Source: Deltaproteobacteria bacterium
GTDB lineage: Bacteria > Myxococcota_A > UBA9160 > SMWR01
Direction of reading: 5' to 3'
Length of the DNA: 32,000 bases
Assembly: GCA_032128115.1 (NCBI GenBank)
Contig: JAQBHB010000090.1
Span: 42,268-74,267, forward strand
The translations under genes and the position numbers were made by a program. The notes below the pieces were generated by a model. That model ran no database searches and was not told the DNA's origin. It worked only from the letters and a program-made list of their open reading frames with translations. Shown in pieces: positions 16,199-23,708 of this stretch (positions are counted from its first letter, which is position 1; the number at the start of each line of letters is the position of its first letter).

Positions 16199-17677
16199 AT
16201 GGCCTTCCTTGAAGACTTCGGACACGACGTCTTCATCAGCTACGCGCACATCGACAACCAGCCCGATCGCGAAGGCGAGCGCGGTTGGGTCGAGAGTTTC
16301 GAGCGGGCGCTCAAGCTGAGACTGCTCAAGCGTTTCGGGCGCGAGGTGGGGGTCTGGCGCGATCCCGAACTCGCTCGCTCCCAGCGCTTTGATCCGGTCA
16401 TCCAGGCCGCGGTCGAGGGCTCTGCGATCATGATCTCGCTGATCAGCGAGAGCTATCTGGCCTCGGACTACTGCCAGCAGGAAATGAGGTGGTTCGCCGC
16501 AAAGATGGCTGCGGAACCCGCGGGGGCCACGGTGGGCCACTACGTTCGGGTGTTTCCCGTGCTCCTCTACAACGTTCCACCCGGCGATTGGCCCGAAGCC
16601 TGCCGCGACACCTCCGGCTTCCGTTTCCACGACGCGGTTGAACGCGGTTTCGGAAAACCGCTGCACCCACAGCGCGACGACTTCACCGATCGACTCTGCG
16701 AGTTGGTGGAGGAGTTGCACACCGTGCTTACAACTCTCTCGAAGCGGACCGGCGATCTCGAAGCCCCCGCAGAGGAACCGCGGGCAGTATTCCTGGCGGA
16801 GGTGTCGGACGACTTGAGAAGAGACCGCCGCCATCTGGGCCTCGATCTCGAGAAACAGGGCATCGAGGTCGTCAGCGGCATCCTGCCCGCCGACGCACGA
16901 ACCCAGTACGAGGCGGCGGTGGTCAAGGCGCTGGGAAAGTCGAAGCTCTCGGTCCACCTGCTGGGCACCCTTGCCGGTCGACCACTGGACGAGTCAGATC
17001 CCGAGAGGACCTATCCGGTGGAGCAGATGCGGATCGGGCTCGAACACGCCCGTTCCCAGCTGGTGGTCCTGCCGCCGGAGTTCGAGCGAGAGGACATCCA
17101 GGAGCCCGGGTACGCGGACCTGATCAGCTCGTTGCAGGAACGGCAGCGAGAAGCCGAGCGGCTCGAGATCGTCCGGATGGGTCGCACCCAACTCGCCGAG
17201 GAGGTTCTGTCCAAGCTCAAGCGACTCGACGCGCAGGAGAAGGCAAAGCGAGTCGCTTCCGCGCCGAGCGGCGAGAGCAGAGCCTTCGTCGACTTGCACA
17301 TCAACGACCTGTCCTCGGCCGGGGATCTCGTTGGATATCTTCAGCGCAACGATCTCCCGGCCATCACGATTCCCTCGGGTGATCTCGACCCGGCGGCCGG
17401 ACTGTCCCTGTTCGAGGAGAATTTGACCAAGGCGCGTTTCTTCATCGTCGTCTTCGGGAGCGTCGCGCGCAGCTGGGTCGAGCAACGCCTGAACGAAGCA
17501 TTGAAACTCATCCTGAGCAATCGACTCAGTACGCGCGTCGGTGTCTATCTGGCACCCCCCCACAAATCGGCAGCGGAAGCGATGTTTCCCCCCTTCTTCC
17601 GGGTCATGAACAACACCGACCACTTCGACCCGAAGACCGTGGACGCACTGCTTCGAGAGCCGCCCGAGTCTCCATGA
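16199..17677 (+). CDS. TIR-domain protein (N-terminal TIR, C-terminal ~350 aa with two further TIR/DUF4062-like alpha/beta modules)
   Basis: The N-terminus HDVFISYAHIDN ... AIMISLISESYLASDYCQQEMRWF matches the bacterial TIR pattern (FISY strand; S-x-x-Y-x-x-S-x-W/YC-x-x-E). The candidate catalytic Glu95 is at 16481-16483. SD GGAG lies 7 nt before the ATG. The stop overlaps the next start (ATGA, 17674-17677). Confidence 0.85.
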   Translation: MAFLEDFGHDVFISYAHIDNQPDREGERGWVESFERALKLRLLKRFGREVGVWRDPELARSQRFDPVIQAAVEGSAIMISLISESYLASDYCQQEMRWFAAKMAAEPAGATVGHYVRVFPVLLYNVPPGDWPEACRDTSGFRFHDAVERGFGKPLHPQRDDFTDRLCELVEELHTVLTTLSKRTGDLEAPAEEPRAVFLAEVSDDLRRDRRHLGLDLEKQGIEVVSGILPADARTQYEAAVVKALGKSKLSVHLLGTLAGRPLDESDPERTYPVEQMRIGLEHARSQLVVLPPEFEREDIQEPGYADLISSLQERQREAERLEIVRMGRTQLAEEVLSKLKRLDAQEKAKRVASAPSGESRAFVDLHINDLSSAGDLVGYLQRNDLPAITIPSGDLDPAAGLSLFEENLTKARFFIVVFGSVARSWVEQRLNEALKLILSNRLSTRVGVYLAPPHKSAAEAMFPPFFRVMNNTDHFDPKTVDALLREPPESP

Positions 17678-21542: not shown

Positions 21543-23708
21543 GTGTACGAGCCCAGACCCCTCGATACGGATCTCGCCGAGCTCGATCCCGAGTTGCACG
21601 CCCTGCTCGAGCGGCTGGCCGAACACCACCACGACCTCTGGGCCCGCGCGCAGATGCGCGAAGGCTGGCGCCACGGGGCCACACGCGACGAAGACCGCAA
21701 GCTCGACCCGCGCCTGATTCCGTACACGGAGCTGGCGGAGCCGGAAAAGCAGCGCGAACGCCGCGGAGCGCGGGAAGTCATCCACGCGATCCGGGCGCTC
21801 GGCCTCGAAATCCGTCGGCTCGTGCCCCACCCGGCTTCCGCCCGGATTCGCGACCGGGTGGCGGCGCCCGCCCCAGTGGCGCTGGGCGACGACGTTCCCG
21901 GCGTTCGCCAGCGGGTGGAGGAGCTTCTCCGCATGGGCGAGCCGCTCCTGGCCTACGAGGCGATCCAGGAGGCCATCGGGCGCTGGCCCGGGGATCTCCG
22001 CTTGCGCCAGCTTCGGGGACTCGCCCTGGCCCGCAGCGGGGCCGCCGATCGCGCGAACCAGGCGATGCGCGAGCTTCGCGAGGAAGGCCACGGCGACGGC
22101 GAGACGCTCGGCATCCTGGCTCGAACGCACAAGGACCTGGCACAGCGCGCGGCAGCGCCAGCGGATCGGGCGTTGCACCTGGAACAGGCCTACCTCGCCT
22201 ATCGGCAGGGCTACGACGCGGCACGCCGCCTGGACAACATCGGGGATGCGTATTTCACGGGCATCAACGCGGCCACGCTCAGCTTCGTCTCGGGTGAACC
22301 CGAACGAGCAAGAGGGCTCGCTCGCGAAGTGCGCGCGCTCTGCCAGCACCAGCTGGCGCTCAGCCCCGAGGACGCATCCTATTGGTTGTACGCGACGCTT
22401 GCCGAGGCCGCGCTCCTGTTGGGTGACCGTGGCGAGGCCGAAGATCAGTATGGCCGGGCCGCTGAGCGGGCGGGCGGGCGCTTCGCCGACCTGAGCACCA
22501 CTCGGCGCCAGGCGCGTTTCCTGCTGTCGGAGCGGGGCGAAGATCCCAGATGGGTCGAGGAGGTCCTCCAGGTCCCCCCGCTCGCCATGTTCACGGGACA
22601 CATGATCGATCGCCCCGGGCGAGAAAGCGCCCGCTTTCCACCCGAGCACGAAGACCGGGTCGCGCACGCGATCCGGGAGCGGATTCGACGGATGCGTCCC
22701 GCGGCCGGCTATGCCTCGGCCGCATGCGGGGGCGACCTCCTGTTTCTGGAGTCGATGCTCGCCGAGGGGCGCGAATTCCACGTGGTTCTGCCCTTCCCTC
22801 CCGACGAGTTTCTCCGCACCAGCGTCGACGTGATCCCGGGCGCCAGCTGGCGCCAGCGCTTCGACCGTGTACTGGCGGCCGCGGCCAGTGTGACCACGGC
22901 CAGCGACCACCACTCCTCGGACGATGTGTCGAACTTCGTCTACGCAAACCTGATCCTCACCGGCATGGCAGCGCTCCACGCGAGACGCCTCGATACGGAG
23001 CTCTTCGCCCTCACCGTATGGGACGGAGAACAAGGGGACGGCCTGGGCGGCACCGCATCGCTCCTGCAGCATTGGCAGTCGAGTGGCCACGCTGTCGAGC
23101 GGATCGATCCCGCCGCTCCGGATGCGGAGGTCACGAACCCCGCGCTCCCGAGCGCCGACGGAACACACGCGATCCCCGAGAATCTGATGGCGATGCTCTT
23201 CGCCGACGCCGTTGGCTACAGCGAGCTGCACTACGATCAGATCCCGCTCTTTGTCGAGCACTTCGTCTCGCCGATCGCAGAACTGATCGGTCGTAGCGCC
23301 ACCCCGCCCGTCCTCAAGGAAACCGCGGGAGACGGTTTCTACTTCGTGTTTCGAAACGTGCGCGACGCTGGGCTGTTCGCCCTGGCGCTCCGCGACCTCA
23401 TCTCACAGGTGGACTGGGAGGCCCGCGGGCTTCCCGCGACCCTGGGGCTTCGCACCGCGCTCCACTGTGGTCCGGTTCACAAGCTGGTCGACCCGATCAC
23501 GGGCGAACAGAAGTTCACCGGGCCCCACACGAGCCGCACCGCCCGCATCGAGCCGATTACGCCGCCGGGCCAGGTCTACGCGAGCCAGGCCTTTGCCGCG
23601 GTGGCCGCAGCGATCGGAGTCGAAGAGCTCGACTTCGAGTACGTGGGGCGCACCGACCTGGCGAAAAAATACGGCTCGCTCGCCCTCTACCACGTGCGGC
23701 GCGCCTGA
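21543..23708 (+). CDS. multidomain protein: RyR domain - TPR-like (MAP3K-TRAF-binding/DUF4071-like) region - Rossmann/SLOG-like region - class III adenylate/guanylate-type nucleotidyl cyclase domain
   Basis: RyR-like segment HALLERLAEHHHDLWARAQMREGW..G......K.DPRLIPYTELAEPEKQRER (about 21582-21812). Helical repeat region with GILARTHKDL...YFTGINAATLSF. Segment MFTGHMIDRPGRESARFP...ACGGDLLFLESMLAEGREFHVVLPF from 22587. Cyclase motifs LFADAVGYS (Asp 23205-23207), AGDGFYFVF (Asp 23331-23333) and GPHTSRTARIE. The start is uncertain. GTG 21543 is the first start after the upstream stop (8-nt gap). The track's 21252 start would overlap the WD40 gene by 283 nt. Confidence 0.8.
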   Translation: MYEPRPLDTDLAELDPELHALLERLAEHHHDLWARAQMREGWRHGATRDEDRKLDPRLIPYTELAEPEKQRERRGAREVIHAIRALGLEIRRLVPHPASARIRDRVAAPAPVALGDDVPGVRQRVEELLRMGEPLLAYEAIQEAIGRWPGDLRLRQLRGLALARSGAADRANQAMRELREEGHGDGETLGILARTHKDLAQRAAAPADRALHLEQAYLAYRQGYDAARRLDNIGDAYFTGINAATLSFVSGEPERARGLAREVRALCQHQLALSPEDASYWLYATLAEAALLLGDRGEAEDQYGRAAERAGGRFADLSTTRRQARFLLSERGEDPRWVEEVLQVPPLAMFTGHMIDRPGRESARFPPEHEDRVAHAIRERIRRMRPAAGYASAACGGDLLFLESMLAEGREFHVVLPFPPDEFLRTSVDVIPGASWRQRFDRVLAAAASVTTASDHHSSDDVSNFVYANLILTGMAALHARRLDTELFALTVWDGEQGDGLGGTASLLQHWQSSGHAVERIDPAAPDAEVTNPALPSADGTHAIPENLMAMLFADAVGYSELHYDQIPLFVEHFVSPIAELIGRSATPPVLKETAGDGFYFVFRNVRDAGLFALALRDLISQVDWEARGLPATLGLRTALHCGPVHKLVDPITGEQKFTGPHTSRTARIEPITPPGQVYASQAFAAVAAAIGVEELDFEYVGRTDLAKKYGSLALYHVRRA

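Follow-up and report, generated by a model that had tools for sequence, protein, structure and literature searches.

Within the STAND proteins, nSTAND1 was defined as a clade belonging to predicted counter-invader systems (Kaur, Iyer, Burroughs, Aravind 2021, eLife 10:e70394, PMC8195603). Among the operons tabulated in that study are those written 'TIR+DrHyd -> nSTAND1+TM+BetaPropeller', from Planctomycetes, Verrucomicrobia, Bacteroidetes, the gammaproteobacterial Thioploca and Acidobacteria (PMC8195603, Figure 2-source data 1, section 8), where TM stands for a transmembrane segment and 'DrHyd' is the Aravind group's name for a DUF4062-type domain. The source data hold 412 'nSTAND1+TM' and 92 'TIR+DrHyd' entries (PMC8195603), and some of the TIR+DrHyd/nSTAND1 entries adjoin multi-TM proteins with a domain for binding cyclic mononucleotides (cNMP; 'TMx11+cNMP') or unannotated '?' genes (PMC8195603). 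The RyR domain is not named in these tables, and the single 'cyclase' entry in the nSTAND1 file belongs to an iSTAND2 system (PMC8195603). Here we describe a three-gene cassette in a stretch of 32,000 nucleotides (nt) of contig JAQBHB010000090.1 from a Deltaproteobacteria bacterium, the whole of which we call the window. The first gene encodes a TIR protein, the second an nSTAND1 nucleoside triphosphatase (NTPase) with WD40 repeats and the third a protein that joins a RyR domain to a class III nucleotidyl cyclase; we refer to them as genes 1, 2 and 3.

Genes 1 and 2 correspond to the tabulated operon type, with a TIR+DrHyd gene directly upstream of an nSTAND1 gene that carries one transmembrane segment and a beta-propeller, the DUF4062 assignment being made through homologues. 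The catalogue, which is computational only, describes neither the third gene of the window nor its RyR-specific linkage, and a 2026 survey of 589 STAND clades, which included nSTAND clades and WD40 sensors, does not describe the arrangement either. A previous sequence-only reading of this DNA could match its part list to no described system. That view has to be given up for genes 1 and 2 but holds for the RyR/TPR-S/cyclase gene, which, together with its RyR-specific association with TIR genes, appears to be undescribed. The feature itself is a real, conserved unit, and its core pair is of a catalogued kind known from computation. We explain the cassette best as an NLR-like module for conflict or signalling, in which two genes form the core and the third is an accessory.

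The three open reading frames (ORFs) are closely packed on the + strand at 16199-23708 in the ORF list. All coordinates are positions in the window, and residues of gene 3 follow the 721-residue numbering unless the 734-residue form is named. The co-directional order of the genes, the ATGA shared by genes 1 and 2 at 17674-17677 and the 8-nt gap before gene 3, all noted earlier from the letters, were confirmed in the sequence. The stop codon of gene 2 is TAG (21532-21534), and the gap leads to GTG 21543 as the start of gene 3. The public gene call begins gene 3 at GTG 21504 (734 residues), in a frame that is open upstream, and so gives it a 31-nt overlap with gene 2. We preferred GTG 21543 because the N-termini of gene 3 homologues (M/V-Y-x-P) coincide with the residue encoded there. 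The trio is present in two independent read-set assemblies. The NCBI contig that carries it, from the metagenome-assembled genome (MAG) GCA_032125055.1, stops ~720 nt 3' of gene 3. Scanning 15600-24400 for promoters and terminators returned nothing exceeding shuffle expectation.

Residues 11-124 of gene 1 match Pfam TIR_2 (PF13676) with 49.4 bits, where the cut-off is 28 (E 8e-13). The AlphaFold2 model, built with 28 homologues, has a predicted local distance difference test (pLDDT) score of 87 and consists of three consecutive alpha/beta domains, the first of which matched the TIR domains of RUN1, RPP1, SPARTA, AbTir and MyD88 in Foldseek. Glu95 is invariant in 28 aligned family members, and the TIR domain, with its catalytic Glu intact, is a candidate for NADase competence. 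The family is large, with ~300 representative clusters at E<=1e-30 in an exhaustive search; nearly all of its proteins have 480-520 residues, and a few clusters are fused into much longer proteins. PADLOC gave a weak ThsB match for gene 1 (28.5 bits, E 2e-7).

The other two domains of gene 1 are less readily named. DUF4062 (PF13271), one of the profiles that the sequence-only reading had put forward for checking, scored above its cut-off of 24.7 at the aligned position in four homologues (P0141, P0175, P0173 and P0222, at 26-30 bits) but was not detected by Pfam in the window protein itself. Within this second domain Q276 never varies, whereas its neighbour E275, which the window protein has, is conserved in only some family members. 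DUF4062 has been described as a TIR-like NADase domain, including that of Swarozyc and TEP1 (bioRxiv 10.64898/2026.05.01.722283), and a DUF4062 defence family, Evangelion, was reported in a 2026 preprint in which enzyme activity was not directly demonstrated. Gene 1 shares this domain with Swarozyc and Evangelion and differs from both in carrying it in the middle of the protein, behind a canonical TIR domain, and in its partners. The third domain has two invariant residues, D370 and W426, and Pfam found no family in the C-terminal 365 residues of gene 1 even at E<=10.

The gene 2 protein matches Pfam PF20703 (nSTAND1) at 285.6 bits against a cut-off of 27.1 (E 1.2e-84), and both its Walker A motif (GSSGCGKS at residue 49) and its Walker B motif (LLLLD at residue 141) are intact. 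Pfam WD40 matches with an E of 2e-133 in 15 stretches, and 16 repeats of the FSPDG type are counted by motif. Residues 491-511 form a run of 21 uncharged residues that follows RRRNRN and reaches a Kyte-Doolittle value of 2.08 over 19 residues. An equivalent segment is found in 16/16 distinct partner nSTAND1 proteins, where it has 19-25 hydrophobic residues and values of 2.0-3.1 (19 residues), and in these 16 proteins Lys and Arg are always commoner upstream than downstream of it. Membrane proteins follow the positive-inside rule in their topology. Because the WD40 array lies downstream of this conserved single-pass helix, whose upstream side is rich in Lys and Arg, it is probably extracytoplasmic; the NTPase would face the cytoplasm and the variable WD40 region would lie outside the membrane, likely in the periplasm. 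The region after the transmembrane segment differs among nSTAND1 partners, which have WD40, TPR-like or coiled-coil sequence there, or a beta-rich domain with Cys, or nothing further, and this is the pattern expected of a sensor. The WD40 propellers are the probable sensor of gene 2.

The STAND switch, the repeat sensor (WD40 in Apaf-1 and TEP1) and the TIR/DUF4062 NADase output are features that the cassette has in common with Avs/bNACHT, eukaryotic TIR-NLRs, Apaf-1 and TEP1. It differs from Avs and NLR proteins in having an NTPase of the nSTAND1 clade, an effector on a protein of its own that is translationally coupled, and a sensor beyond a transmembrane helix. This last point means that the WD40 array would not be a cytosolic sensor of the Avs type, and corrects the sensor/switch scheme that had been proposed from the letters. 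PADLOC returned HEAT-ARM_XIII (1.1e-42) and weak mad3 and mad8 matches for gene 2, with no Avs, AVAST or NACHT family among them, and the NTPase starts at residue 10, with no effector fused to its N-terminus.

Repeats 9-15 of the array are near-identical in protein sequence (FSPDG.R[IV]VTAS.D.TARVWNADGSGEP), which suggests a recent repeat expansion or recombination in the sensor; tandem DNA repeats of 123-126 bp, with 69-73% matches, encode them at 20320-21381. A different layout is seen at L022:11482-18103, where an nSTAND1-transmembrane protein with a short Cys-containing beta-rich tail is followed by a 1423-residue NHL/BACON repeat protein. The latter may be a separately encoded extracytoplasmic sensor.

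Gene 3 opens with a RyR domain that matches Pfam PF02026 at 87.8 bits against a cut-off of 27.4 (E 5.8e-25), as well as the R12/R34 repeats of animal RyR and the RyR-like Bacteroides structure 3NRT. Phage RyR-domain proteins, termed RyDEP, hydrolyse or tightly bind the TIR-made 2'/3'-cyclic ADP-ribose (2'/3'cADPR) through H75, W78, H100 and D117 (PMC13232231). The RyDEP family has accordingly been described as glycosidases or nanomolar sponges for 2'/3'cADPR (PMC13232231, 2026 preprint), and the R12 family has been proposed to regulate nucleotide immune signals (PMC13232231). Gene 3 belongs to the same Pfam family as RyDEP, and among its relatives that carry the domain (RyR+, as opposed to RyR- for those that do not) the pattern H..W, H at +22 and D at +39 recurs in 25/33 with the spacing seen in RyDEP. 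At the RyDEP ligand positions the window protein has H30, W33, D55 and E72 (H-W-D-E). Gene 3 differs from RyDEP in being host-encoded, fused to a TPR-S/alpha-beta/cyclase body and placed beside a TIR gene, hence it is not anti-defence. Further RyR domains occur near its homologues. An 893-residue protein at L105:12506-15184, 3' of a RyR-cyclase homologue, carries another RyR domain (E 1e-18) and matches Torsin/P-loop weakly, and a separate small RyR ORF is present at L095:131-385.

In the AlphaFold2 model of gene 3, built with 23 homologues (pLDDT 84), a helical RyR domain leads into a long TPR array, and an alpha/beta domain and the C-terminal domain follow; in the 734-residue numbering the TPR helices span 131-354 and the alpha/beta domain residues 358-540. 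Pfam TPR-S matches at 63 bits (E 4.4e-17) and MAP3K_TRAF_bd weakly. The alpha/beta domain has 36 invariant columns, with the motifs GHMID..R..RFP..E, Y.SAACG.D...E and WDG..GDG.GGT. SLOG models, which had been named as a check for this part of the protein, found no support: Pfam gave no match of any kind to this domain in 13 members at E<=10, no PDB sequence matched, and hhalign against an LSDAT/SLOG protein gave a probability of 0.1, so the assignment was rejected at the sequence level. With the whole gene 3 model as query, Foldseek returned a phage DprA-like protein (E 4.4e-5, target TM score 0.80), in a match for which the aligned query region is not reported. The middle domain is possibly SLOG/DprA-like, as judged from the model.

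By fold and family profile, the C-terminal domain of gene 3 is a class III cyclase. Foldseek matched it to Rv1900c, Ma1120, CyaC, sGC and GC-A (E 2.5e-7, target-normalised TM score 0.73-0.78), the profile of the gene 3 cyclase family matched solved PDB cyclases by sequence at an E of 5.6e-9, and many gene 3 homologues carry PF00211. D555 (F-A-D) and D597 (G-D-G) are invariant and align with the Asp residues of the D-x-x-G-F/Y and G-D motifs of 3MR7, 3ET6 and 4NI2. From general knowledge of class III cyclases, we take these two residues to be the metal-binding pair. The transition-state Arg is also invariant, and the position of the Asn is occupied by Ser in nearly all members and by Asn in P0032. 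The domains named in the sequence-only reading were all borne out, from the TIR fold with its Glu through the STAND NTPase, Walker motifs, transmembrane helix and 16 WD40 repeats of gene 2 to the RyR domain, TPR array and Rossmann-like module of gene 3; for the cyclase the support comes from fold and family profile, PF00211 not being found on the window protein.

The neighbourhoods of homologous genes show how the cassette is put together. Members of the gene 1 family adjoin an nSTAND1 gene in 21/21 loci with enough flank, whether or not gene 3 is there. Gene 1 followed by nSTAND1 occurs in the presence of gene 3 at L001, L011, L020, L050, L054-56, L061-63, L074, L076, L080, L095 and L099, and in its absence at L022-L025, which include the cultured Sphaerotilus microaerophilus. 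Because the pairing holds with or without gene 3, genes 1 and 2 form the core, and gene 3 is an accessory and not a core part. Full trios were found at L011 and L106. At L020 the order is TIR/DUF4062, nSTAND1-TPR and RyR-cyclase; in a Bipolaricaulia MAG (L016) a fused TIR-nSTAND1-WD40 gene overlaps the next gene, a RyR-cyclase, by 4 nt; and in Pyrinomonadaceae a ThsB-type TIR gene alone is followed by a RyR-cyclase gene. The position of gene 3 relative to the TIR/STAND pair varies, being upstream, downstream or divergent. The synteny of the three genes, which the sequence-only reading had proposed as a check, far exceeds chance, and extends across different phyla in rearranged or fused forms. 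A profile-free contig scan with a single gene 3 sequence had recovered just 7 loci; TIR and STAND genes were absent from all of them, and every match started after the RyR domain. The initial impression of no synteny was reversed because closer and RyR+ relatives do show linkage.

Two of these loci have richer surroundings. At L016:3012-15112 the order is a TIR-nSTAND1-WD40 gene (1411 residues), the RyR-cyclase gene, an LSDAT/SLOG-SLATT gene, a TIR gene of 310 residues and a gene for a 942-residue TIR-WD40-like protein, and the flanks hold a methyltransferase, a metallo-beta-lactamase with a weak Apyc1-like match and a transposase. L011:8648-15594 is the closest full trio with long flanks. Within 7 kb 3' of it are encoded a cNMP-binding protein of 144 residues, a metallophosphoesterase and a membrane protein of the MMPL/RND type that has a cNMP-binding domain at its C-terminus; similar neighbours ('TMx11+cNMP') stand beside TIR+DrHyd/nSTAND1 pairs in the tables of Kaur et al.

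The gene 3 family has at least 744 members in a word-indexed search. Linkage was counted in 80 metagenome loci fetched by gene 3 similarity alone, 43 of them RyR+ and 37 RyR-. A TIR and/or nSTAND1 neighbour was found at 21/43 RyR+ loci (20 within 6 kb by profile, one more by Pfam) against 2/37 RyR- loci (one with a TIR gene, the other with a WD40 gene upstream at a contig edge), a difference with a Fisher p of ~1e-5. These counts are lower bounds, since the jackhmmer TIR profile missed at least one TIR gene (L052, recovered by Pfam). Neighbours with cNMP-binding domains showed the opposite distribution, at 14/37 RyR- loci against 1/43 RyR+ loci (p ~6e-5). They stand beside RyR- paralogues at L004, L064, L077, L079, L088 and L094 (immediately downstream and convergent), and also at L014/L015/L030, L081-L083, L092 and L096. 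Most of these proteins have 125-157 residues, and those of L014, L015 and L030 are mechanosensitive-channel proteins with a cNMP-binding domain. The RyR- paralogue and its cNMP-binding neighbour look like a separate two-gene cNMP signalling module. That the RyR- paralogues adjoin cNMP-binding proteins, together with the conservation of the active site, argues that the gene 3 family makes cNMP.

How might the three proteins work together? Here we infer the activities, the direction of signal flow and the immune role. The WD40 region of gene 2, probably in the periplasm, would sense a cue or ligand. By analogy with other STAND proteins, the NTPase would switch and oligomerise upon ligand binding, and the clustering of gene 2 could bring the translationally coupled gene 1 protein together. 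The TIR domain would then consume NAD+, make an ADP-ribose (ADPR)-type nucleotide, or both, and the DUF4062-like and third domains of gene 1 may serve in docking or regulation. Gene 3 would act as a signal converter, in which the RyR domain, perhaps with the alpha/beta domain, receives the TIR product, and the cyclase, thus controlled, would emit a cyclic mononucleotide to cNMP-binding proteins encoded elsewhere. Two observations favour a signal that runs from TIR to gene 3: many genomes have an autonomous TIR-STAND pair, and the presence of RyR follows the TIR neighbourhood. This relay, from sensor through STAND and TIR signal to RyR-cyclase and cNMP, is the best model we can offer, held tentatively and at somewhat below an even chance, and it keeps as its frame the sensor, switch, effector and second messenger of the sequence-only reading. 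The more specific claim of a two-messenger immune relay, in which a membrane NLR-like receptor activates the TIR, a host R12 domain reads the ADPR-type product and the cyclase converts it into cNMP, seems to us rather unlikely as it stands.

Several observations weigh against such a relay. The membrane topology of gene 2 is itself a prediction from hydropathy and charge. At the positions of RyDEP H100 and D117 the RyR domain of the window protein carries D and E, which leaves the tetrad incomplete, with the equivalence of residues taken from published numbers and spacing and not from a RyDEP alignment. Pfam detected no cyclase in the C-terminal 302 residues of gene 3 even at E<=10, and Ser replaces the transition-state Asn in the window cyclase. 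A cNMP-binding protein was nearby at only one of the 43 RyR+ metagenome loci, and neither a cNMP receptor nor a dedicated effector was found among the window ORFs tested. The RyR domain is not constant even among close relatives, as L106 is a complete trio of the window's own clade, with a 44-nt overlap, whose gene 3 has no RyR domain, and L011, in the same clade, is a trio with a degenerate one. In a neighbour-joining tree of the TPR-S-to-cyclase region the RyR- unlinked loci group in what is essentially a single clade, the sister of the window's, so that the two-by-two linkage counts are not independent and may reflect few evolutionary events. Finally, PADLOC-DB v2 recognises no system for the cassette, and the window, with its metabolic and PEP-CTERM neighbours, is not recognisable as a defence island.

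The logic of the proposed relay is also that of Thoeris, in which a TIR-made ADPR-type signal is read by the nucleotide-binding domain of a separate protein, and one relative of gene 3 stands behind a ThsB_TIR gene as a RyR-cyclase gene. The window contains no ThsA (SIR2, transmembrane or Macro effector), as no ThsA model matched, and the ThsB score is weak. The cassette also differs from Thoeris in its proposed receptor, a RyR domain with or without a possible SLOG-like domain, in having a cyclase as output and in partnering TIR with STAND. NCBIfam likewise gave no equivalog, the FxsC_Nterm match at 43.8 being far under the cut-off of 130.

The alternative that survives best is a non-immune transmembrane signalling module for envelope, environmental or cell-cell (kin, developmental) cues, with TIR and cyclase messengers that regulate physiology. 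Such a role would suit the window, whose neighbours are metabolic and PEP-CTERM genes and not defence genes and in which PADLOC finds nothing. It would also suit the predicted extracytoplasmic sensor, which would be unusual for phage sensing, the ordinary-looking cNMP signalling pairs formed by the other gene 3 clade, and the tie to multicellular lifestyles that Kaur et al. drew for such systems. We nevertheless think it unlikely, because TIR, DUF4062 and STAND serve immunity or cell death wherever they have been studied in bacteria, the sensor tail and WD40 repeats are hypervariable, as in conflict systems, and the L016 homologue lies among SLOG-SLATT, extra TIR genes, a methyltransferase and a transposase.

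It is also conceivable that the signal flows the other way, as in Pycsar and Pucsar, which resemble the cassette in having a cyclase of class III fold encoded in one operon with a TIR protein, an arrangement that implies cNMP signalling. In that case gene 3 would stand upstream as a sensor-cyclase fed through TPR-S or RyR, the cNMP that it makes would activate gene 1 as an NAD+-depleting effector, and gene 2 would provide a scaffold or second input. PucsarTIR sets a precedent, as cyclase-made 3',5'-cGMP activates a TIR NADase that has a cNMP-binding domain, and the same preprint mentions immune cyclase lineages linked to STAND NTPases (bioRxiv 10.64898/2026.08.12.744502). The two extra nucleotide-fold domains of gene 1 could bind a ligand, and TPR-S is named a 'sensor' repeat by Pfam. 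Nevertheless, gene 1, gene 2 and the window ORFs tested showed no cNMP-binding domain, and gene 3 has no PADLOC match, nor did PADLOC identify any Pycsar component. Gene 3 further differs from these systems in being a large multidomain protein. The gene 1-nSTAND1 pair is widespread without a cyclase, so activation of the TIR cannot depend on one, and the cNMP-binding partners belong to TIR-unlinked paralogues. Taken with these points, reverse flow is improbable.

We give a similarly low probability to the idea that gene 3 is a brake or threshold-setter, whose RyR domain sequesters or hydrolyses the TIR signal to prevent self-activation or end the response, the cyclase having a separate physiological function. 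A sponge or hydrolase gives no reason for fusion to a 600-residue TPR/alpha-beta/cyclase body with conserved catalytic residues, and trios persist after loss of the RyR domain, so the remainder of gene 3 matters to the partnership. These objections have to be set against the behaviour of the RyDEP family, whose members act as glycosidases or nanomolar 2'/3'cADPR sponges, against the catalytic His/Asp pair kept by most RyR+ relatives (the window protein keeps the His and has Glu at the acid position), and against the dispensability of gene 3 in many loci.

That gene 3 is merely an unrelated physiological cyclase which landed beside a TIR-STAND pair is very improbable, even with many family members unlinked to TIR/STAND and about half of the RyR+ loci showing no such gene in the available flank, because Bipolaricaulia, Acidobacteriota and the lineage of the window all show the linkage, in different orders and fusions and with operon-like spacing (an 8-nt gap in the window, a 4-nt overlap at L016 and a 44-nt overlap at L106).

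The features of the cassette and of the adjoining region are collected in Table 1. Genes flanking the cassette in the window encode a glycosyl hydrolase 3, two P450s, a sulfatase, an asparaginase, an amidase, a DUF6178 protein and a PEP-CTERM protein. The sequence-only reading had described the 3' flank as insertion sequence and pseudogene debris in keeping with a variable island. We did not find such debris, as no transposase family and no known defence gene was detected among the window ORFs tested, and an island context is unsupported for the window, whose neighbours are metabolic and PEP-CTERM genes; the L016 homologue does have a transposase nearby. The ORFs at 23813-24430 (-) and 24742-25629 (+) sit in the lowest-GC kilobase of the window (0.60). 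Divergent from gene 1 is a 771-residue ORF at 13684-15999 (-) with no Pfam match, which the public gene call splits into 637 and 103 residues. Another ORF with no Pfam match, of 1026 residues at 28471-31551 (-), lies in a region with a very high GC content of 0.72-0.74 and a strongly negative AT skew, and adjoins the DUF6178 gene at 27804-28943 (-).

Table 1. Positions of the cassette genes, their domains and two downstream ORFs in the 32,000-nt window.
Feature	Positions	Strand	Basis
Gene 1, 492 residues, TIR + DUF4062-like + third alpha/beta domain	16199-17677	+	ORF list
TIR domain, ~residues 9-150	16223-16648	+	Pfam TIR_2, Foldseek
Candidate catalytic Glu95 codon	16481-16483	+	family alignment
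Second alpha/beta domain, DUF4062 ('DrHyd') homologue, ~residues 195-330	16781-17188	+	PF13271 in homologues
Third alpha/beta domain, ~residues 360-485, no Pfam family	17276-17653	+	AlphaFold2 secondary structure
Gene 2, 1286 residues, nSTAND1 NTPase + one transmembrane helix + 16 WD40	17674-21534	+	ORF list, Pfam
nSTAND1 module, residues 10-427	17701-18954	+	Pfam PF20703
Walker A Lys55 codon	17836-17838	+	motif GSSGCGKS from residue 49
Predicted single transmembrane helix, residues 491-511, LVAGAAGAVILALSTLALWAL	19144-19206	+	hydropathy
16 WD40 repeats, two propellers	19381-21447	+	Pfam WD40, FSPDG units
Gene 3, 721 residues (734 from GTG 21504), RyR + TPR-S + alpha/beta + class III cyclase	21543-23708	+	ORF list, Pfam, model
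RyR (R12-type) repeat domain	21546-21815	+	Pfam PF02026
TPR-S / ASK1-like helical repeat array	21894-22565	+	Pfam TPR-S, model helices
Alpha/beta (Rossmann-like) domain	22575-23123	+	invariant columns, model
Class III nucleotidyl cyclase domain	23175-23705	+	Foldseek, family profile
ORF with PEP-CTERM-like tail (PLPEP, hydrophobic stretch, RRR)	23813-24430	-	by eye only
PEP-CTERM ORF	24742-25629	+	motif by Pfam

The core pair has a layout of its own, with an NLR-like NTPase whose variable sensor apparently lies outside the membrane, and this predicted arrangement resembles that of a Toll-like receptor assembled from separate proteins. The family also offers natural variants for comparison, as gene 3 exists in RyR+ and RyR- forms, both with and without the TIR-STAND pair. 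If the relay is true, gene 3 would contain the first host-side RyR domain to act as a receptor in TIR signalling, and the cassette would be the first case of an immune signal derived from NAD being turned into a cNMP signal. The RyR domain would then be an ancient cellular receptor for TIR/cADPR signals and not only a tool of phage counter-defence. The finding bears on whether the R12 domains of animal RyR bind cADPR-type ligands, and a true relay would set a precedent in prokaryotes for the connection, long debated in animals, of cADPR with the RyR channel.

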